DNA of 64,000 bases, taken from the NCBI GenBank assembly GCA_030704615.1, contig CM060734.1, forward strand, positions 59,582,001 to 59,646,000, read 5' to 3'. This DNA is from Takakia lepidozioides. Taxonomy: Eukaryota; Plantae; Bryophyta. Made by a program: the position numbers and the translations under genes. How positions within the stretch are numbered: the stretch's first letter is position 1; each line of letters starts with the position of its first letter. The notes under the pieces were generated by a model. That model searched no databases, was not told the origin of the DNA, and worked only from the letters and a program-made list of their open reading frames with translations. Below, in pieces: positions 4,638-58,600 of the stretch.

Positions 4638-4658
4638 GTCCCATGTCTTTCATTTCTT

Positions 4659-5246: not shown

Positions 5247-5247
5247 A

Positions 5248-5868
5248 TGTCGCGCGGCTTTTACTCACCCATCCCTTCGCTATCCGAGGCGGAAACTCCA
5301 AGATAGAAGAGTTGGAAATCTCTAAGTACTCAGCCCGCGCAGAACAATCAGTCATGACCTACAGCTAGTGTATCATGGGGGTGTTTCCTATTTGTTTCCT
5401 TTTCCGCATTCATCTTAGCTACCTTACCATTGATAATTAAGTATCAGTTTGCTTCATCAATTTATCGGTTTCCTTAACTCCTCCATTCATTCCACAGCTT
5501 CACTCAGATCTCTCTACACAGTGTGATTGTATCGTATAAGTATCAGATTATGATTTATCAGGTATCAGGCCGAAGCCATTATGTCTCTATTCTTCTTTCC
5601 TATATCACTACATAGCTTTGCATATAACAAGCATCTACTAATCCTCTTTTCTCCTTCATCGTGCTCTCCGATCTCCGCTCCCGCCTGTCTCCGAAGTCCT
5701 CCCCGAATAATGATCCCCCTCATTCCCCGTTCTTCCCTTTATCCTCCTATCCGCGGTTCTAACCGTTTCCCTCTCTAACCGTCGTATGTGAACTAACATG
5801 TTCCCTTCACAGGTGTTGTTCCCCACAGTCGTTCCCTGTCCTACTCTTCGTTCCCTATTATCGTGACA
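5248..5868 (-). repeat. 5' LTR of element A
   Basis: Starts TGTCGCG next to the PBS and ends CGTGACA (imperfect terminal inverted repeat). The partner LTR is outside the window, so the far boundary is inferred. Confidence 0.6.
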
Positions 5869-8241: not shown

Positions 8242-8746
8242 GCATATCGCTACACAACTACATCGTTGTCCAAACCACACCACACATATATGCACAATAA
8301 AGTAGTCTGCCACAATGATAAGAAAAGCTAAAGACACACTCTTAACACAAGAAACATGAAATCCATCTCTATCACTCTTTAAATAAAGTCGAGCCAGGGG
8401 CACCCCAAGCTATGGGGACTCCACCCCACAACAACCTACTCCCATCATAAGCACACTCAGTCTAAACGCATGAAGGAGCTCGGTCGCGCAGGCTCAACTC
8501 GAGAGAGATGAGCTGCGCGACTGCCGCTCTCGTGAAAGACGGTTCAGGTGTCAAACTAAACTTGACACCTGATTTAACACTTGACCTAAATCCAAGTGTT
8601 AAATACAAATAACTAGCTTTATTCTAGTTGTTTTCACACTGTGCTTATTTAACTTGACAGCTGTCGTGCGCATACGTATCGCTACACAACTACATCGCTG
8701 TCCAAACCACACCACACATATATGCACAATAAAGTAGTCTGCCACA
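8242..8746 (-). repeat. 3' terminal repeat block Y-X-Y of copy B
   Basis: The 85-bp Y unit (TGTCGTGCG...GCCACA) lies on both sides of the 344-bp X unit (TGATAAG...CTTGACA); the outer Y is truncated. The same block occurs at 39976-40490. Confidence 0.9.
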
Positions 8747-8758
8747 ATCGCCCCCTAG
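8747..8758 (-). promoter_or_regulatory. Polypurine tract of copy B
   Basis: Minus strand CTAGGGGGCGAT immediately precedes the TG of unit Y; the same motif is at 40491-40503 and 55858-55870. Confidence 0.75.
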
Positions 8759-9003
8759 CTGGTGGATAGGTCCCTCTACTCCAGATAGCTACAAGATGTA
8801 ATAGCCACAGCCGTACTAAGTCCTCTATCACTGTCCCTATTGTACTCAAACTCTATAGACCAAGAGGCCGGGTACAAGAGTAGCCCCATCGTTAGTCGCC
8901 GTCTTGCAATCTGTGAACTTGAGCCAGGACTCGTGTGTTCAAGGTCTCCTAGTAGCTTGGCCTTGCGTTTCTTGTTAGCCTTCCATGGTTGTATCCACTC
9001 CCA

Positions 9004-10463
9004 CTATCCAATGCAATGTGGACATAACCAATCCCCATCCGGAACCATCTCAAGAGGTGGAGTCAAGCATCCCATATGCCAACCTCTAGAGCATCGATCA
9101 CACACCAGCATGGTGGCTGCCCCTTAGCAGACCCACACAACATGCACCTCAAACCTGCAGATACCACTGCCAGGTTTGGGTCAATCCTGCCATCGACATT
9201 CGGAAGGTGACATGGCGCACAATTACGCACATGGTCCTTCCAAGTTATGCCATCCCGACCCTCCAAGACCAAGACGCCTGAGGGCAAGACCTCTCGAACC
9301 CTCAAAATAACACGTCCTGCAGTCACATCCAAGGTCGTAGGAGCAGTCTGCTGCAGATAGACATAGTCACCAGGGTTGAATCTCCGAACCCCAGGACGAT
9401 AGCCCCCACCACGTATGGTAGCATACCTCAACGTATCACGGTGTTGTGCAATGGCAAGGTTCTCGAAAGCCATGGGCATGACTTCTTGAACAACTCTGCA
9501 CGCTGCTCACATGCACGTGCCCACACGTCCGGATCGTCAAGGTTAAGAACTGTAGCAGCTTCTCTGCGAATGGATGTAGGCAAATCCGGCTCGGCCAAAG
9601 AGAAGAAAGTATGGTGAGAAGGAGGCAAGTGATGCTTGCTTGCTGAACCTGTAGCCCATGGCTAACCAGGGTAACTGAAGGTCCCAATCTCCTAGGTGTC
9701 CCTTCTGCAAGCCATACTTGCGCAAACCCCTCTTTACTGTCTGAACAACTCTCTCTGCCAAGCCATCGGCCTCAGGATGATCCCGAGAAGTGGTGCGGTG
9801 GTCTATCAAGGCCTTGTCACACAAAGCCTGAAACTCCCCCAAGAACTCTCTCCCTTGGTCCGTGAGTACCTCAGCTGGAGCACCGAATCGGCTAAGCACA
9901 CAATCCAAGAATGCATACGCAGCTCCCTCACTAGCCTTATCAGGCAATGGAACCAATTCAATCCACTTGGAGAAGTGCTCCACCATCACCAACACGTACT
10001 TGTTGTGGCGCATGGTCAGTGGCAACGGCCCTGCGAAGTCAAGACTCCACCTGTAGCCCAATCCCATGATCGGAAGAGGGTGCAATTGTGGAGTAGGGGC
10101 GTTGAATGAAGCACGCACCCTGTCACACACCATGCACCTAGCCACAAATTGTTGCACCTCTGTGTGCATACCACGCCACCAATACTGCCCCTGCAGTAGA
10201 CTATGAGTGCGTCGCACCCCAAAATGCCCCAACTCCTCATGGGCATGCCGCACTAACCGTGCCCGCTGTGTTGGGTGAGGCACAATCCTCACTCGACCAT
10301 CCTCCCACACTCGGAGCAGGTGTGTCCCCTCCCACTTGAACCTCTTGGCTCGTTGTAGGATCCGATCCCTCTCCTTGGCAGTCACAGTGGCTGGTGTCTC
10401 CAGTGCGGAGGTAGTCCAACACAACTGAATCCTCATGTATATCTTTGGCGCCACCTTGCTCAT
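9004..10463 (-). CDS. DDE integrase with C-terminal PHD finger (copy B; frameshifted)
   Basis: HHCC motif (HAHEELGHFG...CMVCDR), core WSLDFAGP / LTDQGREF / GLAERVVQ, then PHD CMLC...CDRCSRGWHMGC...WLCPHC before a TAG at 9004-9006. Confidence 0.92.
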
Positions 10464-10689
10464 TGCTGGCCTCAGGGTCCTCAGACACTTGATCTACAGT
10501 CATCCCTGTTGCAGGTCCAACCTGGCCTTCCGCTGCCAAGATACACAGAAATGCAGATGCATGCCATCCGGGCACCATCTCCTCGTCCGTCTCACCATGC
10601 CACCGAGCTCCAGTGTCATCCTGCTGGCTCGTGCATGGATTGCGACTCAACCCATCTGCATTGCGATTGACCAAACCGGGTCGATGCAC

Positions 10690-12060
10690 CACCTGAAAGT
10701 CATACTCTTGAAGGATGAGTGCCCACCGTGCAAGCTTCCCCGTAAGCTTGTCTGACTCCATCAACCACTTGAGTGGTTGGTGATCCGTGACAAGGTGAAG
10801 AGATTGCCGTATAGATAGCACCTGAAGTGTGCCACGGCCCACACTGCAGCTAAGCATTCTCCCTCATATGAGCTATACTTAGACTCTGCAGCATTGTTCG
10901 AGCGGCTAGCATAAGCCACTACGAACTCTCTTCCCTCATCATCCACCTGTGTGAGCACCGCTCCAAGCCCCAGCATGCTCCAATCTGTATGCAGCTGAAA
11001 AGGACGCCCCCTGATAGGTCGTCTCAAGATGGGCGCCGAGGTCAACCTCGCCTTGAGCTCTTGAAAAGCTTGTTCTTGCTCATCTTCCCACTGCCACTCC
11101 TGGTCCACCTTGGTCAGCTTGGTTAGAGCCTTTGCAATGGCACTAAATCCCTTAACAAACCGTCTGTAATAGTTTGCTAACCCCATGAAAGCTCGAACTC
11201 GGCTCACATCCGTGGGGCGTGGAACCTGTGCAATGGACTCTACCTTAGTCTGCTGTACCCCCAATCCTCCAGGATATATCATGTGACCCAGATACTCAAT
11301 CTGGTTGTGGAAAAACTTGCACTTGCCCGGATGTAACTTCAATCCGTGCGTCCTCAAGCGCTCAAATACCCCCTGAAGGTGTCTCATGCTCCTCCACCGT
11401 AGCACTAAAGATGATGATGTCATCTATGTAGCACCGAGCAAACTCCACCCCTGCTAGAATCCTGTCCATGACTCTTTGAAACTCAGCGGGAGCGTTTTTA
11501 AGCCCAAATGGTAAGAACCGCCACTGGTATAGGCAATCCTTCCCGTGCTCATTGATCCCCCAGAATGCCGTCTTTTGCTTATCCCTCCTTGATCGGCAAC
11601 TGGTGATATCCGGATCGTAAATCCAACGTGCTAAAGACCTTGGAATGCCCAATGGCATCAAAGATCTCCTCTGGTGTCGGCATGGCATACCTATCGGACT
11701 TGGTCTGACGATTTACAGGCCGGTAATCACCGCACATACGTCTCTCCGTCCAATTGCCATAGACATCCTTCTTGGCTGGCATCACTGTGGCTGAAGCATA
11801 CTCTCCACCAGAGAGCTCACCAAACCTGCCTCCCAGAGATCTTGAGTCCTCATCTGAATCAAGACCTCTCCATGTCACTGTATCTATAGGGTCTCCGAAA
11901 GATTGGCGTGTCAGTGGCCAACTCAATACGGATCTCTTGACCCTTCAGTGCTCCCAAGTCCTTCAAACTGAAGGCAAAGCAATTCCTGTAAGCCCTCAGG
12001 AACCGCCGTATACGTCGTCTCTCTCCTCCGGTGACAATGGGTCCAATGTCAGGCTCCCAA
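10690..12060 (-). CDS. Reverse transcriptase + RNase H (copy B; frameshifted)
   Basis: RMCGDYRPVN, LDLRSGYHQ, LPFGLKNAPAEFQ, YIDD; RNase H LHTDWS...GAVL, YASRS, TDHQPL. Confidence 0.95.
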
Positions 12061-12419
12061 TTGTCCTCCGTAACTGCAACCTTAAGTCCAGTGGGCTTAG
12101 AGGTAGAGGACGCGTCCCGTGGTTGCTATGCTGCAACCTCTTGAGCAGTACTCCCTTCCTGCTCAGTCAATGACAAGGCCTCATCCTGCCCCATCATCTC
12201 ATCATTGAGAACCTCCTCATCCCGAGAAGAATCCCCAACCTCATCCATCACAGCTGCCTTGGCTGCCAACTCCCTCTGAACCTCGAGCACCTCCCACGTG
12301 TGCCATGGATGTCTACACCCGTGGTCCTCACCGGCTCGCCCCCACTCGCTGCCTGTACCGTCTCGGTAGGCGAGAGACCGTCAAGGGAAGTGCACTCCGC
12401 ACTCTACGTTGCTCAGCCA

Positions 12420-13370
12420 TAGCCAAGCTGATAATCCAGGTCAAGCAATTGAGATCCATTGCTTGCCCCAACACCTGACGACGTGATGCCTCAGAAAGAG
12501 AAGGCACCGCCGTGGTCCCAGTGGAAAACCCATAGCCCGCTCTCGCTCGTCGGCATTAGGCTCCACTAACTGTTGCAACTGAGCATCCCACAGGAGGCCA
12601 GGTCCACCATCCCGAAAAGCATGGGATCCTGGGAAGCTGAGCAGTGTAGGTAATGCTGCTCGTGGTTGACCCACCCTGTTGACCACTGCCAAAGGCGAAC
12701 GGTCATCGTGTCTCACACGTTGAGACTGCCTCCCTGTGTCCAAAATGCCATCCACGTGAGGTGTGCTGGCCGCTGCACCCCATCAAATGCACGCTTGAGC
12801 AGTGCGGGTGGCATCAAGTTAGTCCACCATAGCCGTGGACGATGAGCCCGTGACCCCACTGCAGCTGCATCCAGCAACACTGCTGACCCAAGCCACGACC
12901 GGACTTGATGCACACTGGCCATCACCCTGGCCCGAGAATCACCCATCAGTGGCACATTCTCCAAGATGTATGCTGGAGATACAGCTTGATGAAGCTGCAA
13001 GTGGCGCAAAAATCCGCACCATCTCCCAAAACAGACCCGTCCTCGAGTCTCGCAATCCATTGCCATGCCCGGCTGATGAATGCCCTTGGCAGGGCCAACC
13101 TGCCACTACCAGATCAATGGAGCCAACCTGCTCCAAATCCTGCGCCCCCAGCAACGAAATGTCTGCTGGCAAGGCTTGTTGGTATCCACGAACTGCAGAC
13201 ACTGGCAACAAATCAGGGTACTGCTGTACCAACTGAGCAACATGGCGCAGTGAGACGCGTCGTGCAGTCTCATCCCTCTCCACATACAGGTAACGTCGAA
13301 CTCGTACACCTGCCTGCAGCACTGCAGCCAATCCAGTGCTGATCCCGCCAAACAAGTCCAGAAGGCAATG
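12420..13370 (-). CDS. C5 cytosine DNA methyltransferase domain, DNMT3-like (copy B; frameshifted)
   Basis: Motif I DLFGGISTG, II YVERD, IV GWPCQGHS, VI ILENV, VIII AHRPRLWWTNL, IX ERERAMGF, X RRQVLGQAMD, in canonical order. Confidence 0.93.
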
Positions 13371-13739
13371 CCTTCATCCGGCACTGCCACACAAGAGTGT
13401 GGTGTCCAATGGCGACAACTGAGGTGGTCCTGGTGCAATCACCGCACTCTCCTCCTCTCCTGACGGTACAAAAGCCTCTACCCAGGCTTGTTGCACCCGT
13501 CCATCAGCAGCCTGCTGCAAATCCTTGCTCGTACCCCACAATGGAGTGTGAGCAACCATGGCAGGCAACTCCGCCATACCATGCATGTCATCCTGCTCTG
13601 CTGGAGGTGGCACATCCTCTGCATGGGCATTGCCTTCCAGCAACTCTCCAGGCCAACTAACTGCAGCTGTAAAGGCGGCTAGTGTTGGCATCTTGCCCCG
13701 CTGGGCAGCCGCAATACCCCCAATGAATGTCACAGGGAG

Positions 13740-16310
13740 CTGTGCACGACGACCATCCCTGACTGCCATCCAGGCCTGTAGGATGCTGACTCCTCCCAAA
13801 AGTCCAGGGTGAAGCCCATGGGTATAACACTGCCCCACCAACGAGGACATCGTAAGAGACCGCGTCTGTCACAATGGCCTTGGCTCGCATCACTGAGCCA
13901 TCTATAGGATGATCTGTAGTCTAATGGCCAACTGATGCCGTGTCATGCCCCGAGCCTGCTCTGATCCTCCCAGAGATGTCTGTATCTGGAAAGGACAAGG
14001 CTCCATATCCGCCTCCATGAGGCCCAAACCTGCAATAGCAGCTCTGCCCAACATCAGTGGCTGAGCTCCCGAGTCCAACAAGACCCGCAGTGGCCGGTAC
14101 TTCTTGCCTGCCGGTCCACTCAAAGAGAAAATGCCATCCTGGTTGTCTAACAAGACAACTCCAGGTGTCACCATGGCGCGCTCAAAGGCTGGCCTAGCTG
14201 GCAGCTCCGTCAACCTGGCAGCTGCAGCTTGCCATGGCGCAGCCGTGGCAGTCTTGACCCTCAAATCCGAGGATCCCTCTGCCACTACACCTTCCAGTAA
14301 CTCCGCAGAAGATGAAGTGACCTCCCCACTCTCACAGAGTGTTGCTGCTAGTCTGAACACTGCAGCTGGTCTTACCCCCGGCGTCGCAATCATGGTTGCC
14401 GAGAACAGTGGGGCTTGACACACAGAGGTGGCTGCCCCCAATAACACACCGGCTGCACTAGCCTTGGTAGCAGGTGTCAGTGCTGCACGTGTAGCTCTCC
14501 CCAATGGCATAGTAACCTCCGCCTCGGTAACAGTCGGGCGAGAACTAGGTGCCATGGATGGCGTCGACACTGTCTCCGCCAATGTGAATGACTGAGGAAG
14601 CCTCGCCTGACGGCTTGCCTCCCCACGCTGTGGATCCAATTCCACCTCTGCACCTCGTGGCTCAGGAACTCGTGCTGCTCCTCGAGTCACGGCTGCAGCA
14701 GACTCCACCTGCTCTAGTGGTAGTGCTGCTCCGCACATGAATCCCATGCCTCCCATATCTCCTCCCTCAGGAGCAGGAGGTGGACCATCCCGCCTGGGAG
14801 CCGGTACCGCCTGAGCTATAGCCATGGCAGCGAGCCTCTGCTCTAGCTGCTGAAGCCGTTGGCCATGCCTTGGTCAACACCCTGACCTCCGCGTCCTTGG
14901 CCATGTTGAGCTTGCCCTTGGCCTGCACCTCGTGCCCGACCACCTCGTCCTCTGGGCTGGTCCACCTCGCCCCCGGCCACCATTGTTCCCTTGGAACTGG
15001 CCTGGGCGCAACTCAGGATGCAAGTCATAACACTGGGCATCTCCATGCCCATACTTGCCACAATGCCCACACTGCAACTGTGCAGGCTGTGCTTGTGCCG
15101 GCCTTTGCCACTCTCTGGGCAATCTCTCTTGACATGGGGTCCTCCACATGTCCAACATATCACCCCTGGTTGTGTTGGCCTGCAAAAGATGCCACGGGCC
15201 TCTGCACCTGAGGTCCCCTGTAAGCTCCATGGAACTTGGGTTGGGAAACCTTGCCCCCCTGACCACGCTGTTGGGCAGTCCCTTTGTGCCTGTGGGCTGG
15301 CAGCTGCGCCTCGTGCAGGCATGTCCTTGCCAAATCCAATGTAACAACTCGCTCCTCCACCATGTTGAGCTCAATCCGCTCAGCCAGCAGAAACACATCT
15401 GCTAATGTGGGTTGGGCTGCTTGTAACAGGGTTGCATCTCGCACCCTTCTCTTGAGCTCCTTGTCCAGAATTCCATACCAAAACTGGATTGCCTGAGCTT
15501 CAGTAACCCCTTGGGTCACACTTATCAAGCGCCTCATACGAGTGTACGCCTCTCGCAGGCTCTCACTGGGTTTGCGCTGGAAGTCTTGCAAACTTCGCAG
15601 CTTCTCTGTCCGTACACCTTGGTAGTTCCTCCGCAACTCCTGGAAGAACTCCACCACCGGGTTGAATCTAGGCACATGTGTTGTAGTCGTGGCAGGAGGA
15701 GTAGTAGCACCTTTTGAACTGGTACCACCTGCAGAAGTACCGGCACTACTTGCTCCACTACTAGTGCTGGCAGTGGGAGATATTGGTACTGATGCAGCTA
15801 CTGGTCGCGTCGTGCCTCGAGTAATGGAGACGTAGTCAGGTGACCAATACATCCTCCACTCCTCAATCTCTGCTTCATGTCCTCGCCTGAACTCGTGGTA
15901 ATCGTCCATAGGCGGGCCTTCCAAATGCTGGAACAGTCCCTTCCACGCCATGAATGGGGTGAATAGCTGTGGATTGCGCATCTGCTGCAAATCACACCAG
16001 CTGTCGAACTCCTGGATAAAGTCATCCAACTCGATTGTGCCCACAGCTCCAGAGTACCTACGAGGCCCCTTGGTAGCTCCATACATCTCCTCCATGTCGT
16101 CCCACAACAATGGCGAATGAAACTGCACACCTGTTGATGAAGCCTCCGAGTCTGTGTCTGACTCTGCACTAGTTGAGGGTGGGGTGAAGGTGGTCTGAAA
16201 CGAATACCTCGTCTGTGAACCCACTCTCACTGTTACTGCTGTAGCCGTACTCCCCTCAAAATCCCTTGGGTAACTCCGTAATGACACTCACAATGTGCAC
16301 CTCCTCCACG
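13740..16310 (-). CDS. Gag, two zinc knuckles and aspartic protease (copy B; frameshifted)
   Basis: ORFs 15160..16287 (gag core), 14843..15322 and 14874..15398 (CWTCGGPHVKRDC, CGHCGKYGHGDAQC), 13902..14825 (LLDSGAQPLM). Confidence 0.88.
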
Positions 16311-16824
16311 TGACACTATAAGGCTCTAGTACTAATCTAATAGTGACACGGGTGGCACCTGTTGCAGTTAAGGGTCATATCCCAATGGCTCAGGGCACCT
16401 GCACCTGCATCCACCGCAAGAACTCCTATGGTTGGCTGGTCATCAACCCAGCCTCACCATAGAAGAAACACTGGTGGTCTTGCTGGTCATCACTCCAGCC
16501 TCACCACCGACAGCATACTCTAGGATTGACCGGTGATCAAATCCGGCCTAATCCCTATGAAAGCAAGCGCCCACACAAAACCAACATGGCGCACAGTCAA
16601 GCATGCAGGTGTTGGGGGGATCCAAACACAAGAAATCAAAACATCAACACCCCCACACCAAAATCCAGCTGCAATGCTGATCCTGCAGAATATCCCAGCC
16701 CAAAACCCCGGACTGACTGGCCTCCACCAAGAGAGGCTTTGGCAACTACAAGTACAAGGTAATGAAAATAGTACAGAGATGGAGGGGAAGAATAGAAGCC
16801 CGCCAAGCAAGATCTAATCCTGAT

Positions 16825-18155: not shown

Positions 18156-19763
18156 GAATTGGGGCGATTTCAAGAGCAGATGCACTGCGCAACACCTTCA
18201 ACCAGCGGCAGTCGCGCGGCACCTTCATGGCTTATGGACAGGCGGCCTGCTGTGATGTGGCCGTCTTTGCATGGAATCCAAAGCCAAGACCAGCTTGAAG
18301 TTCCATCAACTTGGTCTTATTCGCATCTCTCGCCAACGATTATTGTTGGCTTAGAATGGTTTCCGCCTTCCTGTTACTGCTCGTGTTTGCTTCAGTGTGC
18401 AATTTACAGGTCAGGGATCGGCAACAACAGGCACCAGATTGCCCCGTCACCACCCCCACAAGGCACAGACAACTTCACTGCCAGGAAAAAGAAAGTGAAC
18501 CATGCTCAGCATGTAGACCCAAGGCCTGGGTCCATCTGCATCAGCTCCAGTATAAGAGAGACAATCATATAGTTATCAAGTCTCTACAGGAATTTGCGAT
18601 TGCCTCAGTAAAGTGGAACTCAATCTGCAGCCTCCTTCCGCCGCCTCTCCATCAACCCTTGGAGGCTCTCGTCCGCTGGCCTCATCCGTCAGCATTGCTT
18701 CTCCTGCTACGAGTCTTCGCATTTCCTCCCCTGCTCGCCTGTGCAGAAGTAAGACCCTTGACGCCGAAATGACAGTAGAGGCAAGTGATCAGTTGGAAGT
18801 GTTCAATGATGAGACAAATAGAGCTGGAGCTCCTTGACCTGTATCGCCACAATCTTGGACTCGGGCAGTGTGCTGAGTTGAAAGTTGGGTTGTGAACCAC
18901 CATTCGACTTTCCACCAGTTTCCACCTCAAAATGGTGGAACCAAGGTGCAAGGCAGCAACAGCTACTTGGCTTTGTACAAACCTGAAGCACTTAAAAAAA
19001 AACGACTTTGCACCTTGCACTCCCCGAAATCAACAATGCCCCAACAACCCTTTTTGTCAGAAAGTTGGTTGCTTATGCAGATAATCGACCAGGTGAAAGC
19101 AGCTTTCCCAGCCACAATCACAAGTAGCATGAAGATTTGTGAGACTCCTGGTTTTGCAGTGTTGATGATATGCCAGCAATGGGCTCCCCGTTCTCCATCG
19201 CTTTGCTGCTAGGCTTTCTCTCTCGGGGCCTGCACCTTCAACCAGCTCGCTGCGCCGTGCTCTACCTGCCGGCGCTGCATTTACTGGAGGGAGCAGATTT
19301 ACAGCTCCTCCTTCAACTGGCTCCGCTACACCAGCTCCACTTGCTCTTCCGCTGCCTTTCCTGACCGCTTCTGGTCTGTCCTGGTTTGAATTTAACACTG
19401 GTCTGTGCACATCGAACTAAGGCGAGCAGCCCGGCCATCTCCAAGCACGGAAGTTCTACCCATCTGCTCGATCACAGGCTCCTCCTTTAAGTCTCGCACT
19501 TGGTCAGTTTCCCAACGGCCAATCGTTGCTACTCCACGATGTCTCCTTACCGACCAAAACGAAGGCTGCTTCCATGCAGTGTAGCTCCATCATGCCCGGC
19601 GGCCTCATGCCAGAACCAACGCTGATCGAAACCTGCATATTTTGTTTTTTTTTTTTTTTTCTAAGCTTCTAAAACTAAGCACTACTTACACACAGGTAAT
19701 CGTACAAGTGCTAACCCTCAACTCCTACCTTGCACTCACAGGTAAGAGGTCATCTCTCTCGAG

Positions 19764-20119
19764 TGATAAGAAAGCTTGAAAGGACATACACTCCCAACAC
19801 AAGAAATATAAAATCCATCGCTATCACTCATTGAAACTGAAGTCGAGCCAGGGGCACCCCAAGCTATGGGGACTCCACCCCACAACAACCTGTACCCCTA
19901 CATAAGCACACTCAAACCTAAACACATGCAGGAGCTCGGTCGCGCAGGCTCAACTCGAGAAAGATGAGCCGCGCGACTGCCGCTCTCGTGAAGATAAGAC
20001 GGACCAGGTGTCAAACTAAACTTGACACCTGATTTAACACTTGACCTAAATCCAAGTGTTAAATACAAATAACTAGTTTTATTCTAGCTGTTTTCACACT
20101 GTGCTTATTTAACTTGACA
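19764..20119 (-). repeat. 5' terminal repeat X of copy B
   Basis: Direct repeat of 8316-8659; TG...CA ends; no Y unit beyond it. Confidence 0.9.
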
Positions 20120-23946: not shown

Positions 23947-23991
<45 letters not shown>

Positions 23992-25177: not shown

Positions 25178-25239
25178 TGTCCAATGTCATCTAAATCCAA
25201 ATGCATCTTTTTCCACAGAGCCTACGACCAGATTTGAAT

Positions 25240-38379: not shown

Positions 38380-40750
38380 CGACCTTATAGAAAAATAAGA
38401 CTGGGACCTGTAATAACGCTTTGTGAATACCCTTGGAACCACAACAAGCTAGACTGTGTAATAAAACAACCAACTCTGTGGTTCACCCATGAGCCTCTTA
38501 TATAGTTCTAGCTAGGAGTAAATTGGCCTATATTCCGGTGTGAGACACGTTGATATCGGTCAAAGTACTTCAATGAGAACAGATTGGGAGGTCGAGGGTA
38601 CCAGTTGTACAATTTTGTAGACCGCCGTTTCTTCCCACCAGAGGCTCTCTAGAGAAATTGCCAAGATTTCTGAGGCGGACTGCAGGAGCTTAAGCTAAGG
38701 GATTCTGAGTGCTTTTAGTACAGACTTCAGACAAGCTCTGGATAAAGAAGACTCAGAATATTTGGTCATAGTAACCATATCACTCGAGAGCGATGACATC
38801 CAATTTACTCAATACTCCGATGACTCTTGCAGGCCGCTCGTCGTCGACAGTAAACAACCAGGTCATCTCAACTGACCAAGACATCCGTCAGATACATGTA
38901 CAGTATGCTTGCCGATTGTAAGTCCTCCATCACTTGCAAGTTAGCAATCGACGTCGGGAAGTTTGCTCCACGCTGCTCTTAAAGCAACGAGTGCAAGAGA
39001 TCTGCGATGTTCGCAATGCAGTTCAGCAGACCTAATCTGCTCGGCGGCGGTGTGCGGAGGAACACTAGCGCGCTACCTGAATCTGCTCACCTCAAATTAT
39101 ATGTACCCGCGCTCGGTTGCAGTAGTTACAAAGCTCTCGAGAAATATTTGATCAGAAGGCAGAAGCTCACGCGCGCGAGCTCAGCACCTGCTCCGTTGTC
39201 CTCTCGGGATTCTGATTTGCTGTGCGAGGACGCTGAACAGCGATGGAAAGGTACAGACGAAAGTGCAGAAAAGTAAGATACAGAGAGAGTATTGCAGAGG
39301 AGCGGGATGGTGGTGAGCAGGTGCCGTAGTACCAAACCTACCCCCTTAGCCTGCACCACACTTCCCTGTCCTCCGATCCGCGCCAATACTGCCATCGCAA
39401 TCCACGCGTCCCACAGCAGGCCCCACGGCCTTAGCGCGCTGAGCATCTTCAGTCTGCCACCCTCGTTCCCTGTTCCCAGGACCCAATCTATGTCTGATAA
39501 TGAGTCTTTAAATAGTAAATTATATGCCTACATTTCCAAAACCTGGGAGGGACAGCTCATAATGCACACGTGCGACCGGTATGCCGTTCCAGCATGTCAA
39601 ATCTTCCCCACCATCTCTTGAAAGTGGAGTGTAAACTCCAATTGGGGTTACATAGGAGTGTAACGCCACTTGGGGTTATACTGGTTACAAGACTGGGTGT
39701 GTAACTCCACTCAAGGTTACACTGAATGAAGTGTAACTCCACTCAATGTAACTCACACTTGGTCTCCAAATTTGACTACTTAATTCCAAATTTGGCCAAG
39801 AAGAGTTAACACATGACACCAGGGTTACATGGGGTTATATAGGCTTGGGTTGCCAATACGCCGAAGTTACAATACAACAACCTCCCATCAAGAATTGAAC
39901 CAGTGTTGTGCTGGTCCGGGTTTTGAAGGCGGGTACCCGGCGGGTTAGGATCCCGGTTACCCGGTTAAAGGGAGCTGTCGTGCGCATACGTATCGCTACA
40001 CAACTACATCGCTGTCCAAACTACACCACACATATATGCACAATAAAGTAGTTTGTCACAATAAATTAAAACTCACACTGTTGACACAGAAACACGAAAT
40101 ACAACCCAATCACTCGTTAAAATAGTCGAGTCGGGGGCACCTCAAGCTATGGGGACTCCACCCCACAACATCCTATTCTCCCTTCATAAGTACACTCAGA
40201 TTCTAAGCAGTGAAGGAGCTCGGTCGTGCAGGCTCAACTCGAGAGAGATGAGCCGCACGACTGACGCGCTCGTGAAGATAAGATGGTTCAGGTGTCAAAG
40301 TAAACTTGATACCTGACTTAACACTTGAACTAAATCCAAGTGTTACATACAAATATCTAGATTTATTCTAGTTAGTTTCACACTGTGTTTATTTAACTTG
40401 ACAGCTGTCGTGCACATACATATCGCTACACAACTACATCGCTGTTCAAACTACACCACACATATATGCACAATAAAGTAGTCTACCACAATCGCCCCCC
40501 TAGCTAGTGGATAGGTCCCTCTAACTCCAGATAGCTACAAGATGTAATAGCCACAGCCGTACTAAGTCCTCTAACACTGTCCCTATTGTACTCAAACTCT
40601 ATAGACCAAGAGGCCGGGTACAAGAGTAGCCCTATCGTTAGTCGTCGTCTTGCAATCTGTAAACTTGAGCCAGGATCTTGTATGTTCAAGGTCTCCTAGT
40701 AGCTTGGCCTTGCATTTCTTGTTAGCCTTCCATGGTTGTATCCACTCCCA

Positions 40751-43110
40751 CTATCCAATGCAATGTGGACATAACCAATCCCCATCAGGAACCATCTCAA
40801 GAGGTGGAGTCAAGCATCCCATATGCCAACCTCTAGACCATCGATGACACACCAGCATGGTGGCTGCCCCTCTAGCAGACCCACACAACATGCACCTCAA
40901 ACTTGCAGGTACCACTGCCAAGTTTGGGTCAATCATGCCATCGACATTTGGAGGTGATATGGCGCACAATTACGCACATGGTCCTTCCAAGTTATGCCAT
41001 CCCGACCCTCCAAGATCAAGACGCCTGAGGGCAATACCTCTCGAACCCTCAAAATAATACATCCTGCAGTCACATCCAAGGTCGTAGGAGCAGTCTGCTG
41101 CAGATAGACATAGTCACCAGGGTTAAATCTCCGAACCCAGGACGATAGCCCCCACCATGTATGGTAGCATAACTCAACGTATCACGATGTTGTGCAATGA
41201 CAAGGTTTTCGAAAACCATGGGCATGACTTTCTTGAACATTTATGCACGCTGATCACATGCACGTGCCCACACGTCCGGATTGTCAAGGTTAAGAACTGT
41301 AGCAGCTTCTCTACAAATGGATGTAGGCAAATCCGGCTCTCGGCCAAAGAGAGAAGGAGGCAAGTAATGCTTGCTTGCTGAACCTGTAGCCCATGGCTAA
41401 CCAAGGTAACTGAAGGTCTCAATCTCTTAGGTGTCCCTTCTGCAAGCCATACTTGTGCAAACCCCTCTTTACTGTCTGAACAACCCTCTCTGCCAAGCCA
41501 TTGGCCTCAGGATGATCCCGAGAAGTGGTGCGGTGGTCTACCAAGGCATTGTCACACAAAGCCTGAAACTCCCCCAAGAACTCTCTTCCTTGGTCCCTGA
41601 GTACCTCAGCTGGAGCACCGAATCGGCTAAGTACACAATCCAATAATGCATACGCAGCTCCCTCACTAGCCTTATCAGGCAATGGAACCAACTCGATCCA
41701 CTTGGAGAAGTGCTCCACCATCACCAACACGTACTTGTTGTGGCGCATGGTCAGTAGCAACGGCCCTGCGAAGTCAAAACTCCATCTGTAGCCCAATCCC
41801 ATGATCGGAAGAGGGTACAATTGTGGAGTAGGGGCGTTGAATGAAGCACGCACCCTATCACACGCCATGCACCTAGCCACAAATTGTTGCACCTCTGTGT
41901 GCATACCACGCCACCAATACTGCCCCTGCAGTAGACTATAAGTGCGTCGCACCCCAAAATGTCCCAACTCCTCATGGGCATGTCGCACTAACTGTGCCCG
42001 CTATGTTGGGTGAGGCACAATCCGCACTTGACCGTCATCTCACACTCGGAGCAGGTGTGTCCCCTCCCACTTGAACCTATTGGCTCGTTGTAGGATCCGA
42101 TCCCTCTCCTTGGCAGTCACAGTGGCTGTCGTGTCTCCAGTGCGGAGATAGTCCAACACAACTGAATCCTCATGTATATCTTTGGCGCCACCTTGCTTAT
42201 TGTTGGCCTCAGGGTCCTCAGACACTTGATCTACAGTCACCCTTGTTGCAGGTCCAATCTGGCCTTCCGCTGCCAAGATACACAGAAATGCAGATGCATG
42301 TCATCCGGGCACCATCTCCTCGTCCGTCTCACCATGCCACCAAGCTCCAGTGTCATCCTGCTGGCTCGTGCATGGATTGCGACTCAACCCATCTACATCT
42401 CGATTGACCAAACCCGGTCGATGCACAACCTGAAAGTCATACTCTTGAAGTATGAGTGCCCACCGTGCAAGCTTCCCCGTAAGCTTGTCTGACTCCATCA
42501 ACCACTTAAGTGGTTGGTGATCCGTGACAAGGGTGAAGAGATTGCCGTATAGATAGCACTTGAAGTGTGCCACGGCCCACACTGCAGCTAAGCATTCTCC
42601 CACGGGGAATCATAGGTAATCTTGTGCTTGAAATCTGGCCCTCTTGGATGAATTTGGACCCACACTCAAAGTGCTAAAGATTTTGGCATGCCCAATGGCA
42701 TCAAAGATCTCCTCTGGTGTCGGCATGGAATACCTATTGGACTTGGTCTGACGATTTACAGGCTAGTAATCACCGCACATACGTCTCTCCGTCCAATTGC
42801 CATAGACATCCTTCTTGGCTGGCATCACTGTGGCTGAAGCATACTCTCCCCCAGATAGCTCCACCAAACCAGCCTCCCAAAGGTCCTGAGTTCTCATCTG
42901 AATCAAGGACCTCTCCATGTCACTGTATCTATAGGGTCTTCGAAAGATTGGCGTGTCAACCAATTCAATGCAAATCTCTTGACCCTTCAATGCTCCTAAG
43001 TCCTTCAAACTGAAGACAAAGCAGTTTCTGTAAGCCCTCAAGAACCGCCGTATACGTCGTCTCTCTCCTCCGGTGACTATAGGTCCAACATCAGGCTCCT
43101 CCATGACTGC
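40751..43110 (-). pseudogene. RT/RH (largely deleted), integrase and PHD of copy C
   Basis: ORFs 42763..43104, 42301..42603, 41419..41988, 40751..40969; the RT core including YIDD is missing. Confidence 0.9.
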
Positions 43111-43459
43111 AACCTTGAGTCCAGCAGGCTTAGAGGTAGAAGACGCGTCACGTGGTTGCTATGCTGCAACCTCTTGAGCAGTGACCACTGCCTCCTCCGT
43201 TAGTGACAATGTCTCATCCTGCCCCATCATCCCATCCTTGAGGACCTCCTCAACTCAAGAAAAATCCCCAACCTGATCCATCACCGCCGCCTTGGCTGCC
43301 AACTCCTTCTGAACCTCGAGCACCTCCCACGTGTGCCATGGATGCGGCCTGCATCTTGTGGTCCTCACCTGTTCGCCCCCACTCACTACCTGTACCGTCT
43401 CGGTAGGCAGGGAGACCCTCAAGGGAAGTGTACTCCGTACTCTGCGTTGCTCAACCATA

Positions 43460-44410
43460 GCCAAGCTGATAATCCAGGTCAAGCAATTGAGGTCCATTGC
43501 TTGCCCCAACACCTGGCGACGTGATGCCTCAGAAAGAGATGGCACCGCCGTGGTACCAGTGGTAAAACCCATTGCCCGCTCGCGCTCGTCAGCATTAGGC
43601 TCCACTAATTGCTGCAACTGGCTATCCCACAAGAGGCCAGGTCCACCATCCCGAAAAGCATGAGATCCTAGAAAGCTGAGCAGTGTAGGCAATGCGGCTC
43701 GTGGGTGACTCGTCTTATTGACCACTGCCAAAGGTGATCGGTCATCGTGTCTTACACGCTGAGACTGTCTCCCTATGTCCAAAATGCTATCCACCGTCAG
43801 GTGTGTGGTGGCCGCTGCACCCCATCAAATGCACACTTGAGCAGTGCAGGTGGCATCAAGTTGGTCCACCATAGTTGTGGGCGATGAGCCCGTGACCCCA
43901 CTGCTGGTGTGTCCAGCAACACTGCTAACCCAAGCCAAGACCGCACTTGATACACACTGGCCATCACCTTGGCTCGAGAATCACCCATCAATGGCACATT
44001 CTCCAAGCTATATGCCGGAGAGTCTGTTTGCTGAAGCTGTAAATAGCGTAGGACCCTCAACATCTCCCAAAACAGGCGTGACCTTGAGTCTTGTAACCCA
44101 TTGTCATGCCTAGTTGATGAATGCCCTTGGCATGGCCAACCTGCCACTACCAAGTGAATAGGGTCAATCCGCTCTAAATGATGCGCCCCCAGCAAAGAGA
44201 TGTCTGCTGGCAATGCTTGTTGGTATCCACGAACTGTAGACACTGGCAACGAAGCAGGGTACTGCTGCACCAACTGAGCAACATGGCGTAGTGAGATGCA
44301 TCGTGCAGTCTCATCCCTCTCCACATACAGGTAACGTCAAACTCGTACACCTGCCTGCAGCATTGCAGCCAATCCAGTGCTGATCCCGCCAAACAAGTCC
44401 CGAAGGCATA
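43460..44410 (-). pseudogene. C5 DNA methyltransferase domain of copy C
   Basis: DLFGGISTG, GWPCQGHS, LENV, AHRPQLWWTNL, ERERAMGF, RRQVLGQAMD; frameshifts present. Confidence 0.92.
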
Positions 44411-46738
44411 TGCCTTCATCCGGGCACTGCCACACAAGAGGTGTGGTGTCCATTGGCGACAACTGAGGTGGTCCTGGTGCAATCACCATATTTTCCTCCT
44501 CTCTTGACGGTACGAAGGCCTCTACCCAGGCTTGTTGCACCCGTCTATCAGCAGTCTGCTGCAAATCCTTGCTCGTACCCCACAATGGAGTGTGAGCAAC
44601 CATGGCAGACAACTCCACCGTACCATGCATATCATCATGCTCTGCTGGAGGTGGCATATCCTTTGCATTGGCATTGCCCTCCAACAACTCTTCAGGCCAA
44701 CTAACTACAGCTGTGAAGGCTGCTAGTGTTGGCATCTTGCCCCGCTGGGCAGCAGCAACACCCCCAATGAATGTCACAGGGAGCTGTACTTGACAACCAT
44801 CCCCTGACTGCCATCCAGGCCTGTAGGATGCCGACTCCTCCCAAAAATCCAGGGTAAAGCCCATAGGATATAACACTGCCCCACCAACGAGGACATCGTA
44901 AGAGACCGCATCTGTCACAATGGCCTTGGCTCGCATCATTGAGCCATCTATAGGATGATTCGGCTGTAGTCTAATGGCCAACTCACGCCGTGTCATGCCC
45001 CGAGCCTGCTCTGATCCTCCCAGAGATGTTTGTATCTGGAAAGGACAAGGCTCCATATCCGCCTCCATGAGGCCCAAACCTGCAATAGCAGCTCTGCCGA
45101 ACATCAGTGGCTGAGCTCCCGAGTCCATCAAGACCCGCAGTGGCTGGTACCTCTTGTCTGCCGGTCCATTCAAAGAGAAAATGTCATCCTGGTTGTCTAA
45201 CAAGACAACTCCAGGTGTCACCATAGCGCGCTCAAAGGCTGGCCTAGCTGGCAGCTCCGTCAACCTGGCAGCTGCAGCTTGCCATGGCGCAGCCGTGGCA
45301 GTCTTGACCCTCAAATCCGAGAATCCCTCTGCCATTACACCCTCCACTAACTCCGCAGAAAATGAAGTGACCTCCCTACTCTCGCACAGTGTTGCTGCTA
45401 GTCTGAACACTGCAGCTGGTCTTACCCCCGGCGTCGCGATCATGGTTGCCGAGAACAGTGGGGCTTGACACACAGAGGTGGCTGCCCCCAACAACACACT
45501 GATTGCACTAGCCTTGGCAGCCGATGCCAGTGCTGCATGTGTAGCTCTCCCCAATGGCACAATAACGGCCTCTGTATCTGTTGGGCGAGAAGTAGGTGCC
45601 ATGGATATCGTCGACACTGTCTCCCCCAAGATGAATGATTGAGGCAACCTAGCCTGACGGCTTGCCTCCCCACGTTGTGGATCTAACTCCACCTCTGCAC
45701 CTCGTGGCTCGGGAACTCGTGTTGCTCCTCGAGTGACTGCTGCAGCAGACTCCACCTGCACTAATGGTAGTGTTGCCCCACACATAAATCCCATGCATTC
45801 CATGTCTCCTCCGTCAGGATGACGCTGCTGAGGAGGAACAGGAGGTGGAACCTCAGGTCTTGGAGCTGGTACCACCTGAGCTGTGGCCATGGCAGCAAGC
45901 CTTTGCTCTAGTTGTTGAAGCCGGTTGGCCATGCCTTGGCCAACGCCCTGACCTCCACGTCCGTGGCCATACTGTGCCTTCCCTCGTCCTACACCTCGTG
46001 CCTGATCACCTCGTCATATCTGAGGTGCTCCACCTCGCCCTCGGCCACCATTGTTCCCTTGGAACTGGCCTTGCCGCAACTCAGGGTGCAAGTCATAACA
46101 CTGGGCATCTCCATGCCCATACTTGCCACAATGCCCACACTGCAACTGTGCAGGCTGTGCTTGTGCCGGCCTTTTGCCACTCTCTGGGCAATCTTTCTTG
46201 ACATGGGGTCCTCCACATGTCCAACATATCACCCCTGGTTGTTGTTGGCTTGCAAAAGATGCTACTGGCCTCTACACCTGAGGTCCTCTGTAAGCTCCAA
46301 GGAATTTGGGTTGGGAAACCTTGCCCCCCTCTGACCACGCTGTTGGGCAGTCCCTTGTGCCTGTTGGCTAGCAGCTGCGCCTCGTGCAGGCATGTCCTTG
46401 CCAAATCCAATGGTAACAACTCGCTCCTCCACCATATTAAGCTCAATCCGCTCAGCCAGTAGAAACACATCTGCTAATGTGGGTTGGGCTGCTTGTAACA
46501 GGGTTGCATCCCGCACCCTTCTCCTAAGCTCCTTGTCCAAAATTCCATACCAGAACTGGATTGCCTGAGCTTCAGTAACCCCTTGGGTCACACTTATCAA
46601 GCGCCTCATACGAGTGTAGGCCTCTCGCAAGCTCTCACTGGATTTGCGCTGGAAGTCTTGCAAACTTCGCAGCTTCTCTGTCCGTACACCTTGGTAGTTC
46701 TTCCGAAACTCCTGGAAGAACTCCACCACCGAGCTGAA

Positions 46739-53969: not shown

Positions 53970-54098
53970 TGACTTCTACCTTAACCACTCATTAAGAGTC
54001 GTACTTTCTCTACTTCAAATACCATCAACATAGTGCTAACATAAAAGAACTCTATCTAGCTTAACACTACAAAAACTAGACAGAGCATCTCTCTCGAG

Positions 54099-54437
54099 TG
54101 ATTAAAACTAAACTCACACTATTGACACAGAAACACGAAATACAACCCAATCACTCGTTAAAATAGTCGAGCCAGGGGCACCCCAAGCTATGGGGACTCC
54201 ACCCCACAACATCCTATTCATAAGTACACTCAGATTCTAAGCAGTGAAGGAGCTCGGTCGTGTAGGCTCAACTCGAGAGAGATGAGCCGTACGACTGACG
54301 CGCTCGTGAAGATAAGATGGTTCAGGTGTCAAACTAAACTTGACACCTGACTTAACACTTGAACTAAATCCAAGTGTTACATATAAATAACTAGATTTAT
54401 TCTAGTTAGTTTCACACTGTGTTTATTTAACTTGACA
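54099..54437 (-). repeat. 5' terminal repeat X of copy C
   Basis: Direct repeat of ~40062-40403, followed by TSD GAGC. Confidence 0.92.
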
Positions 54438-55199
54438 GAGCCAATAAAACCACAATGATATGAGAAGGCAAGGTCAACTTCGCATGTTTTTTTTTTTTTA
54501 AAAAAATTATTAATAAATATTTTATTTTAATAATAAAACACAATCAACAACAAACAAGATGATTTGTCAACTACTCTGCAATCATGTGGTGATTTGTTTT
54601 AGCACAAGTTGTGGGATTATTGATTTGGCTATCGCTCCAGTGTCGACATGTTTAAGTCTGGCATACACACATATTAGACAAATCTTGCTAGCTTCTGGTC
54701 ATTGGTCGAGATGGGATTATTTAGGGAATTTTAACTTCACCCAATATGTCACATTAATGAGATGAGGCCCATTTGCCTACATGGGAAGTTAGATTTGCAT
54801 GCGTGGTATAAGAAGAGAGCAATATTCCTAACAGAATGAAACGTAGCTCTTGAGAGAGAGAAGACTAATTTATGGTGTCATTGAGCCCCCCCCCCTTCCC
54901 CACCCAAAAAAAAGGCCACAATATGGGGAAGAGGCTAGAATTACTTGCGCTAGCTTCGGCTTGCATCATACTATATGTATGGTGTCGAAGAAATACTGTG
55001 TTTTGTTGGGAAAGTGGGCTTCTTTTAAAGGTCATAACATCTTAACCAATGTTGGGCGAGTATAGGAATTTCATCATATCCACATGTTTCAATTATAGCC
55101 AATATTTTGGAGTTAGGATTATCTTGTTACACCACGAAGAGCAATATATTGGAAACAAAGTCATGAGCAACGAGGCTTTGGCTGCATAGGCATCACAGA

Positions 55200-55693: not shown

Positions 55694-58600
55694 TGTCGTG
55701 CGCATATATATCGCTACACAACTACATTGTTGTCCAAAACCACACAACACATGTGCACACCAAACACTAGTCTATTACTAGTCCACCACTAGTGCAGCCA
55801 CTAGTCCAACCACTAGGCTGCCACTAGCCACCACTAGGCTGCCACTAGTCCATCACAATCGCCCCCCTAGCTGGCGCTTAGGTCCCTCTAAGTCCAGGTA
55901 GCCACAAGATGTGATAGAGGCCATAGCCTCACTAAGTCCTCCACCACTGTCCCTACTACACTCAAACTCGATAGATCAAGAAGCCGGGTACAAGAGTTGC
56001 CCCATCATTAGTCGCCGTCTTGCAGCCTGTGAAATTGAGCCTGAGATCTCGGGTATTGACTCCTATGAGCTTGGCCTCCCATGTCTTGTTAGCTGCCACT
56101 AGTCATATCCACTGCCACTATCCCAAGTAGTGTGGACATAACCAATTTCCATCAGGAACCCTCTCAAGAGGTTGTGTCAAGCATGCCATGTGCCAACCTC
56201 TTGAGCATCGATCACACACCAGCAGAGTGGCGGCACCACAAGCATGCCCACATAGCATGCAACGCAACCCTGCATGTACCACTGTAAGGTTGGGATCTAT
56301 CCTCCCATCCACATGTGGAAGGTGACATGGCGCACAAATACGCACATGGTCCTTCCATACCATGCCATCTCGACCCTCTAGAATCAACACTCCTGAAGGC
56401 AACACCTCCCTAACCCTTAGAATCACACATCTTGTTGTGACATCCAAGGTCGTCAGCGTTGTCTGCTGCACATACTAATAGTCCCCAGGGTGGAAATGCC
56501 GAACACCTGGCCGATATCCCCCTCCACGTATAGTGGCATACCTCAATGTGTCTCGGTGTTAGGCAATAGCAAGATTTACAAAAGCCATAGGCATGACTCT
56601 CTTGAACAACTCTGCCCGCTGGGCACATGCTTGTGTCCACACATCCAGATCATCAAGGTTGAGGACATCTGCAGCCTCCTTGCGAATAGATGCAGGCAAA
56701 TCTGGCTCTCGGCCAAAGAGAAGGAAATATGGTGAGAAGGAGGCAAGTGATGCTTGCTTGCTAAACCTGGAGCCCATGGCTAACCAAGGTAGCTAAAGAT
56801 CCCAATCTCCTAGGTGTCCCTTTTGCAAGCCATACTTGCGCAAACCCCTCTTCACTGTCTGAACCACTCTTTCTGCCAAGCCATCGGCCTCGGGATGATC
56901 CCGAAAAGTGGTACGGTGGTCTATCAAGGTTTTATCACACAAAGCCTGAAACTCCCCCGAGAACTCTCTCCATTGGTCCGTGAGTACCTTAGCTGGAGCA
57001 CCGAATCGGCTAAGCACATGATCCAGGAATGCATACGTAGCCCCCTCATTAGCCTTGTCAGGCAATGGAACCAACTCAATCCACTTGGAGAAGTGCTCCA
57101 CCATCACCAACATATATCTGTGGTGGCGCATCGTCAGTAGCAACGGCCCCGCGAAGTCAAGACTCCACCTGTAGCCCAATCCCATGATGGCTATACGATG
57201 CAACTGTGGTGTAGAGGCGTTGAATGCAGCACGCACCCTGTCACACACCATGCACCTAGCCACAAATTGTTGCATCTCTGTGTGCACACCACGCCACCAA
57301 TATTGCCCCTACAGTAAACTATGAGTGCGTCGCACTCCAAAATGCCCCCAACTCCTCATGGGCATGCCGCACTAACCGTGCACGTTGTGTTGGGTGAGGC
57401 ACGATCCTCACCCGACCATCCTCCCACACTCGATCCCTTCCCACTTAAACCTCTTGGCTCGTTGTAGGATCCGATCCCTTTCCTTGGTAGTCACACTAGC
57501 TGTCGTGTCTCCAGTACGGAAGTAGTCCAACATAACCGAATCCTCATGTATATCTCTGGCACCACCTGGCTCATCACTAGCCTTAGGGTCCTCAGACACT
57601 CTGTCTACAGTCATCCCTGTTGTAGGTCCAACTTGACTTTCCGATGCCAAGATACACAAAAAGGCAGATGCATGTCATCCCGACACCATCTCCTTGTCCG
57701 TCTCACCATGCTACTGAGCTCTAGTGTCATCCTGCTGGCTCGTGCATGGATTGCGACTCAATCCATCCGCATCCCTATTGACCAAACCCGGTCGATGCAC
57801 AACCTGAAAGTCATACTCCTAGAATATTAGTGCCCACCGTGCAAGCTTCCCCGTAAGCTATTCTGACTCCATTAACCACTTGAGTGGCTGGTGATCAGTG
57901 ACAATGGTGAAGAGATTGTCGTATAGATAGCACCTGAAGTGTGCCAAGGCCCACACTGCAGCTAAGCACTCCCCCTCATATGAGCTATACTTAGACTTTG
58001 CAGCGTTGTTCGAGCGGCTAGCATAAGCCATTACAATCTCTCTTCCCTCATCATCCACCTGTGTGAGCACCGCTCCAAGCCCCAGCATGCTCCAATTGTA
58101 TACAGCTGAAAGGGACGCCCCCCTGATAGGTTGTCTCAAGATGGGCGCCGAGGTCACCTCGCCTTGAGCTCCTGAAAAGCTCGCTCTTGCTCAGCCACTC
58201 CTGGTCTACCTTGGTCAGCTTGGTTAGAGCCTTTGTAATAGCACTAAATCCCTTGACAAACCGTCTATCGTAGTTTACCAACCCCATGAAAGCTCGAACT
58301 CGGCTCACATCCGTGGGGCGTGGAATCTGTGCAATGGCCTCTACCTTAGTTTACTGCACCCCCAATCCTCCAGGATATATCATGTGGCCCAGATACTCAA
58401 TGTGGTTGTGGAAGAACTTGCATTTCCCCGGATGTAATTTCAATCCGTGCGCTCTCAAGCACTCAAACACCACCTGAAGGTGATTCTCGTGCTCTTCCAC
58501 CATAGTACTAAAGATGATGATGTCATCTATGTAGCACCAAGCAAAGTCCACCCCTGCCAGAATCTTATCCATGACTCTCTGGAACTCTGCGGGAGCGTTC

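Follow-up and report, generated by a model that had tools for sequence, protein, structure and literature searches.

The 64,000-nucleotide window, that is, the whole stretch of DNA that was analysed and to which all positions refer, carries three related elements, all on the minus strand, which are decayed members of a high-copy bryophyte Ty3/Gypsy family. They encode a DNMT3-type cytosine methyltransferase (DNMT) domain that is under purifying selection, and an in-frame stop codon shared by the three copies separates this domain from the reverse transcriptase (RT). Taken as a whole, we propose only tentatively that they represent an ancient green-plant Gypsy lineage, found in Marchantia and mosses, in which an active DNMT3 would be produced at capsid stoichiometry owing to stop readthrough, the cDNA would be methylated before integration through a palindromic junction, and a PHD finger would target insertion.

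The three copies were recognized by self-comparison of the window (Table 1). Pfam matches to Gag, RT, RNase H, an integrase with H2C2 and rve parts, and the methyltransferase profile PF00145 were found across them, in the Gag-protease (PR)-RT-RNase H-integrase order of Ty3/Gypsy elements, together with a polypurine tract (PPT), TG...CA ends and a target-site duplication. A PHD finger stands at the integrase end, with Pfam matches in copies B and C. The coding region is not bounded by two equal LTRs; terminal repeats follow an A-coding-B-A-B or an A-coding-B layout instead. PR scores only E 0.029 in the window, and relatives pass or approach the cut-off. Its DSG motif lies upstream of the DNMT domain and RT lies downstream, which confirms a sequence-only reading that had placed a C5-methyltransferase between the two.

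Table 1. Positions of the features of copies A, B and C in the window
Feature	Position	Strand	Remark
Copy A, whole element	20119 to 8243	-	
Copy A 5' repeat A1	19765..20119	-	starts TGTC; 93.3% identical to A2
Copy A predicted self-priming PBS	19750..19764	-	complementary to sequence inside repeat A
Copy A gag (Retrotrans_gag, weak match), then two zinc-knuckle-like motifs	15163..16287	-	
Copy A ORF with PR motif	13905..14873	-	DSG at 14061-14078
Copy A DNMT3-type domain	12420..13375	-	four frameshifting indels; PF00145 at 12942-13373 (E 4.5e-10)
Copy A shared stop and context TAG CAA CCA	12120..12128	-	TAG at 12126-12128
Copy A RT and RNase H	10764..11944	-	frameshifted
Copy A integrase, H2C2 zinc finger and rve core	9546..10271	-	
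Copy A PHD finger, integrase end	9003..9140	-	frameshifted; Pfam match shown on copies B and C
Copy A 3' end, overall	8243..8760	-	PPT, B1, palindrome, A2, B2
Copy A repeat B1	8662-8748	-	
Copy A palindrome GACA-GC-TGTC	8656-8665	-	
Copy A repeat A2	8317-8659	-	
Copy A repeat B2	8243-8316	-	truncated
Copy B, whole element	54437 to 39976	-	
Copy B 5' end	54086..54441	-	target duplication GCTC (54438-54441), A1 (54100-54437), self-priming PBS; A1 96.1% identical to A2
Copy B stop-free frame, Gag linker through PR into DNMT motif I	44340..46013	-	558 codons; DSG at 45111-45128
Copy B DNMT3-type domain	43453..44417	-	one stop, one frameshift; PF00145 at 43800-44336 (E 6.4e-9)
Copy B shared stop and context TAG CAA CCA	43153..43161	-	TAG at 43159-43161
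Copy B RNase H remnant, integrase, PHD finger	40754..42609	-	most of RT deleted
Copy B 3' end, overall	39972..40505	-	PPT, B1, palindrome, A2, B2, target duplication GCTC
Copy B repeat B1	40406-40492	-	
Copy B repeat A2	40063-40403	-	
Copy B repeat B2	39976-40062	-	ends GACA
Copy C, whole element	beyond 64000 to 55694	-	5' end outside the window
Copy C gag and zinc-knuckle motifs	61947..62747	-	one frame
Copy C DNMT3-type domain	59524..60478	-	two stops, one frameshift; PF00145 at 60140-60424 (E 1.5e-6)
Copy C shared stop and context TAG CAA CCA	59227..59235	-	TAG at 59233-59235; flanked by open frames 59236-59925 and 58639-59232
Copy C RT, RNase H, integrase, PHD finger	56121..59124	-	
Copy C 3' end	55694..55872	-	PPT and single B repeat ending GACA

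The same reading had announced a full domain in three copies. All three lie where it had put them and score above the curated cut-off of PF00145, but none is intact; the breaks are each private to one copy. As claimed, the motifs are retained: GWPCQGHS and ENVP in all copies, RAHRP, WWTNL and GQAMD in two or three each, and DLFGG in copies A and B, which reads NLFGG in C. Motifs I, IV, VI, VIII, IX and X stand in canonical, non-permuted order, again in agreement with the earlier description, and the domain is nearest to DNMT3. Among solved structures, a stop-free piece of copy B comes closest to DNMT3A, 3C and 3B (E values from 3.4e-6 to 7e-5), and M.HhaI is reached at E 3e-3. When the open relative P0281 was modelled (pLDDT 84.7), its first structural matches were DNMT3A/B/C (E 3.8e-18; TM 0.79 over the target), and the full predicted fold fits DNMT3-DNA complexes. 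DRM2 is a far weaker match. Both comparisons support the identification as a DNMT3-like C5-methyltransferase.

For the DNMT domain, dN/dS was 0.25 between copies A and B (P = 7e-10), 0.43 between A and C (P = 1e-3) and 0.27 between B and C (P = 2.5e-11), on 315 to 317 codons per pair; the pairs depend on one another, and the values are inflated by post-insertion decay. None is near 1, a value that had been named in advance as fatal to the claim, and the domain is under purifying selection. Integrase values (0.18 to 0.39) are close to these. Codon phase was taken from the open frames of each copy, because a single global phase is lost beyond the DNMT-RT stretch, and stops listed there were disregarded. 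An inversion in copy C led us to leave out its PR and linker values, and a frameshift one RT reference stretch.

Several rearrangements are visible in the window. Copy A (8950-16400) looks recombinant: its DNMT and RT are nearer to those of C (pS 0.12-0.14, versus 0.23-0.25 to B), and its gag and integrase to those of B (0.13 and 0.07, versus 0.62 and 0.21 to C). The gag of copy B is split by a 3.5-kb CACTA-type insertion (46739-50238), with ends CACTA...TAGTG, 13 of 14 terminal bases inverted and a 3-bp duplication TTC; a 70-base piece related to it lies at the RT deletion of the same copy (42594-42667). Within copy C, a 460-base inversion (61160-61618) destroys the PR region. Positions 21836-25177 hold a fourth, older fragment of the family, with a gag 89 to 93% identical to that of copy C and a diverged A-like repeat (25006-25175), and copy A may be nested in it. 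The window further contains an ordinary Ty3/Gypsy element without methyltransferase (1-5264; two long open frames, one of 1050 and one of 517 codons, which overlap in different phases) and a partial second copy of it (6405-8026), a 280-base inverted repeat pair around 7.6 kb (25235-32847) with a DDE_Tnp_4 transposase fragment (29919-30533), and a host gene with introns, of the cinnamyl alcohol dehydrogenase type (35538-38900). The best named matches of this gene are in mosses (73 to 75% on one exon), and it groups with Ceratodon and Sphagnum proteins (SH-aLRT 95); judging by this one gene, the host is probably a moss.

The methyltransferase had been described as part of the polyprotein, packaged with RT and integrase. 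It is indeed in frame with PR, in the long frame of copy B, and with RT, but the shared TAG divides it from the latter; as this conserved stop follows the domain, the enzyme is not simply a part of Pol packaged with RT and integrase. From motif I to the DLRSG motif of RT, one phase holds throughout and the TAG is the only stop common to all copies. It lies about 96 codons past the DNMT core and is followed in all three by CAA CCA, which is an in-frame TMV-type context (UAG plus CAR YYA); CAR YYA after UAG is reported as essential for TMV readthrough in the passages considered of PMC2754532. Positions 59227 to 59235 show zero variants at 2% of depth (187 and 141 host contigs), while other places near the stop vary at 5 to 21% or more and 59225, 59238 and 59239 are variable; this scoring covered the middle of the stretch, and X1 and X3 represent one sample.

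The site was then compared in related loci. Of 80 metagenome loci, 73 extended far enough downstream, and 61 of these remained once redundancy at 97% was removed; the alignment reached past the site in 55 and failed in the other 6. The aligned site is a stop in 50 of the 55 (35 TAG, 15 TAA) and a sense codon in five (2 TAC, 2 GTT, 1 TGG). It is followed by CAR-YY in 51 of 55 and by the full CARYYA in three; most have CAA CCC. The L003, L032 and L079 lineages share the same stop context despite differing flanking residues. Most related loci belong to one Sphagnum-type subfamily, so that the independent evidence is that of the lineages: the window, the L003 type, L032 and L079. RT resumes in the same frame 129 to 147 bases beyond the stop in these loci. 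Proteins of Marchantia, Calypogeia and Sphagnum terminate 80 to 82 residues past the DNMT core, and a deeper clade of Gag-PR-DNMT proteins of 1228 to 1451 residues likewise ends before RT. The stop is not required by the whole group, since DNMT runs on into RT in one open frame in Closterium (P0279, P0174, P0246, P0146) and in some other relatives. Loci L037 and L044 read TAC at this site, and DNMT and RT would be fused in them.

Given the position of the stop, DNMT, as the last domain of the Gag-PR-DNMT frame, would likely be made at capsid level in the abundant product, and RT-RNase H-integrase-PHD would likely be made behind it by leaky readthrough of the TAG. The PHD finger is nearest to those of CHD4, KDM5B/5A, ATXR5 and PHF21A, which prefer unmethylated H3K4, and it may bias insertion toward chromatin with unmethylated H3K4. 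Inside the particle, the enzyme itself would most likely act by methylating newly made cDNA, the likeliest substrate by analogy with SymbioDIRS-Dnmt3, two domains of which methylate CG in yeast according to the passages considered of PMC5890265. On sequence grounds, we judge it reasonably likely that DNMT closes the Gag frame at the conserved TAG, with enzyme at capsid level, Pol by readthrough and methylated cDNA. A role away from the cDNA, such as nucleic-acid binding in the particle, methylation of RNA, or action on host chromatin or older copies, appears somewhat unlikely. Capsid-level amounts would be more than one cDNA needs, and the CpG observed/expected ratio of the copies (0.46 to 0.51) is not clearly lower than that of the neighbouring host gene (0.53) and is above that of the ordinary Gypsy element in the window (0.25), so that there is no sign of extra CpG self-methylation; the Klebsormidium Dnmt3 domain was, moreover, inactive in yeast (PMC5890265, passages considered). 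Such a role fits poorly, however, with the catalytic cysteine, the ENV glutamate and the RxR arginines being at least 90% conserved in 62 relatives, with a predicted fold that fits DNMT3-DNA complexes, and with the activity of the two SymbioDIRS-Dnmt3 domains. Methylation of the new cDNA is the function we prefer.

The ends of the elements suggest how this cDNA may integrate. The layout is a 5' repeat A (about 350 bases), the coding region, then PPT-B-A-B. It recurs in L019/20, L039 and L063, and a shorter A-coding-B form, which may come from later recombination between the B repeats, is found in L012, L037, L058, L062, L065, L069 and L011/17. Elements end in TGTC and GACA, and the 4-bp target duplications are exact in 8 of 11 insertions, with one mismatch (a transition) in the other three; L011 and L017 overlap by 97.5% and were counted as one insertion, and 7 of 10 are exact without them. 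Where the inner B meets A, the window copies and the least decayed of the related loci have the palindrome GACA-GC-TGTC. Bases following A1, the presumptive primer binding site (PBS), are complementary to a sequence inside A, over 14 to 15 nt in the window and 17/17 in L063, and the pairing sequences differ between the window copies and L063. Complementarity reaches at least 14 of 17 in 6 of 15 related loci and only 10 to 13 in the other nine. A tRNA primer was rejected on inspection, no TGG being present after repeat A. B1 starts directly after the PPT and A ends directly at the PBS; the A2|B2 join brings together the PBS-defined end and the PPT-defined start with single-base precision, and it does so in two lineages whose coding regions share 65% identity over the part compared.

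According to the route we propose, the element RNA would prime itself, its PBS pairing with the sequence in repeat A, and plus-strand synthesis would set out from the first base of B, directly behind the PPT; because of this start, B+A would be the true LTR of the cDNA. Joining of the two cDNA ends would create the A2|B2 junction, the integrase would cleave each strand of the internal palindrome (GACA^GC-TGTC) to give two CA-3' ends, and the permuted or circular cDNA would be inserted as A-coding-B-A-B. For retroviruses, the use of an internal junction for integration is documented chiefly in vitro and in drug-reversal experiments. Internal cleavage of a palindromic junction by HIV integrase has been described in vitro (PMC1905944, passages considered). 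From the junction sequences, we slightly favour integration of an end-joined cDNA opened at the palindrome. A symmetric circle should also yield A-B-A-coding-B insertions, and this mirror form was not seen among the 5' ends examined. The occurrence of A-coding-B-A-B and A-coding-B only would be explained if the split ends were inherited via a transcript through B2, in a DIRS/PAT-like manner, with the integrase using one regenerated B-A junction and A2|B2 being historical. SymbioDIRS indeed has the same layout (PMC5890265, passages considered), but the agreement of A2|B2 with the PPT and PBS borders, to the base and in two lineages, argues against such inheritance, which we regard as unlikely. 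Opening of the joined cDNA at the palindrome is the route we retain.

As to the expression of Pol, readthrough of the conserved stop is the best reading of the sequences and, taken alone, a probable one. Splicing across the stop, or reinitiation, could yield Pol without readthrough, DNMT still being a Gag-frame product. Sphagnum-type loci with CAA CCC have an ATG three codons after the stop, so that reinitiation is possible in that lineage, but L032 and L079 have none, and the first in-frame Met of the window copies is at codon 85 in A and C and codon 19 in B, with no conserved early Met among them. Ogre elements resolve split gag-pro/RT layouts by splicing, and in some gene models of Marchantia DNMT and RT are connected over the stop region; zero contig joints were found across the stop, under thin cover, and the one contig that spans it was not counted as expression, the RNA label of its source run being a guess. 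Furthermore, the six bases after the stop are kept across lineages, and codons on both sides are constrained (dN/dS 0.24 to 0.38 in the tail before the stop, 0.11 to 0.43 in the 32 to 36 codons after it). We consider splicing or reinitiation quite improbable, and readthrough is preferred. No stable conserved structure was detected downstream of the stop (z -0.4 to -2.4). Finally, one might suppose that the methyltransferase was captured by chance or is carried along as a passenger, under neutral decay, and that the stop is a defect handed down within a non-autonomous subfamily. This idea is extremely improbable: all three copies are broken, but it is already contradicted by the conservation of the stop across related loci and by the dN/dS values, and the same domain, position and stop occur in liverworts and mosses, with an open 1278-residue Gag-PR-DNMT protein in a Marchantia record.

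Homologues numbered 752 at E 0.001 among 50% representatives. Those named come from Marchantia polymorpha, M. paleacea, Riccia, Calypogeia, four Sphagnum species, Closterium, Klebsormidium and Scenedesmus, the names being taken from 20 of 150 listed representatives. In a FastTree tree of DNMT domains (144 rows, no outgroup, no named host DNMT3 or DRM among them), the window copies cluster with the liverwort and Sphagnum proteins in a clade of 27 rows (SH-like 100), and the RT tree gives the same grouping. Klebsormidium protein GAQ93235.1, of order Gag-knuckle-PR-DNMT, is among the homologues; Klebsormidium and window DNMTs are homologous but lie in separate branches of this unrooted tree, whose deep support is weak. 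The family is very abundant, since 3549 and 2749 contigs of host DNA runs cover one 1.6-kb stretch. Marchantia and Sphagnum-type elements (P0283, P0325, L003) are closer to each other than to the window copies in both trees, which may reflect ancient parallel lineages or horizontal transfer. A second architecture, RT-RNase H-DNMT-integrase-PHD in one open frame (P0142, P0147, P0162, P0183, P0322), forms its own clade in both trees, with Scenedesmus as the one named member, and was not met in the literature examined.

The element type and its A-coding-B-A-B ends are already known from KnitGypsy-Dnmt3 of Klebsormidium nitens, a Gypsy element with Dnmt3 and DIRS-like repeats (de Mendoza et al. 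2018, PMC5890265, Fig. 4c legend). The sequence-only reading named this precedent; the terminal structure, which it listed among features not described to its knowledge in a land plant, is not new. It had also assigned the dinoflagellate retrotransposon enzymes to Dnmt5, which is a host gene there; the passages considered assign these enzymes to Dnmt3 in DIRS elements and to an orphan lineage in LINE elements. Two later citing papers give Gypsy-Dnmt3 only as 'streptophytes'. In the literature covered, which leaves most subscription papers, Repbase and theses aside, we found no published land-plant case, no stop or readthrough in Gypsy-Dnmt3, and no account of how such ends integrate. Published descriptions were not found for the relatives in Marchantia, Riccia, Calypogeia and Sphagnum, the shared in-frame TAG with readthrough context between DNMT and RT, the PHD finger closing the integrase or, in this element type, the self-priming PBS, TGTC...GACA ends, 4-bp duplications and GACA-GC-TGTC palindrome.

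The role of retrotransposon DNMT was left open by the 2018 report in the passages considered, its Gypsy enzyme being inactive in yeast. The question is directly testable in a land plant because open Gag-PR-DNMT frames, annotated as hypothetical genes (for example, Mp4g09160), exist in the genetic model Marchantia polymorpha. The stop dividing DNMT from RT changes the expected enzyme dose, and the ends suggest that integration by way of an internal junction occurs in nature. Lacking a pair of equal LTRs, the family would likely be overlooked or wrongly delimited by structure-based LTR finders, a possible reason for its absence from the survey passages considered.

Among known systems, KnitGypsy-Dnmt3 shares with the window elements the Gypsy type, a non-permuted Dnmt3 under purifying selection, and DIRS-like repeats. 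It has DNMT in a Pol ORF with RT and RNase H in the passages considered, whereas a conserved leaky-type stop intervenes in the window copies; GAQ93235.1 also ends just after DNMT. The elements described here differ further by their bryophyte hosts and very high copy number. Their PHD finger, self-priming, 4-bp duplication and palindromic junction are absent from the text passages on KnitGypsy-Dnmt3, whose figures or supplement may show a PHD finger or separate frames. The stop resembles TMV-type readthrough sites (PMC2754532, passages considered) by its in-frame TAG, the following CAA CCA and the coding frames on either side; it differs from them in standing after Gag-PR-DNMT rather than directly after gag, and in that most related loci have CAA CCC.

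PHD-bearing Gypsy elements are known in Chlamydomonas, REM1 being one. Gypsy-7a_cRei likewise has a Gypsy polyprotein with PHD, and unequal LTRs; compared by description only, no methyltransferase is described for these Chlamydomonas elements in the passages considered (PMC9940879). The Tcn1 or Tf1-Sushi moss chromoviruses are similar in having a PBS complementary to their own LTR and not to a tRNA end (PMC6317226, passages considered). Unlike them, the window element has split ends and DNMT, and a PHD finger replaces the chromodomain, which was not found at the integrase end. SymbioDIRS-Dnmt3 shares the A-coding-B-A-B repeats and a Dnmt3 domain (PMC5890265, passages considered), but the window element, unlike tyrosine-recombinase elements, has a DDE-type integrase and 4-bp duplications, and the 157 segments scanned gave zero matches to a tyrosine recombinase. 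Finally, the EpiLTRs of Cymbomonas and Euglena also join a DNA methyltransferase and a chromatin reader in an LTR element, and they differ in using DAM, a DNMT4-related enzyme and a chromodomain (bioRxiv 10.64898/2026.05.21.726589, passages considered).
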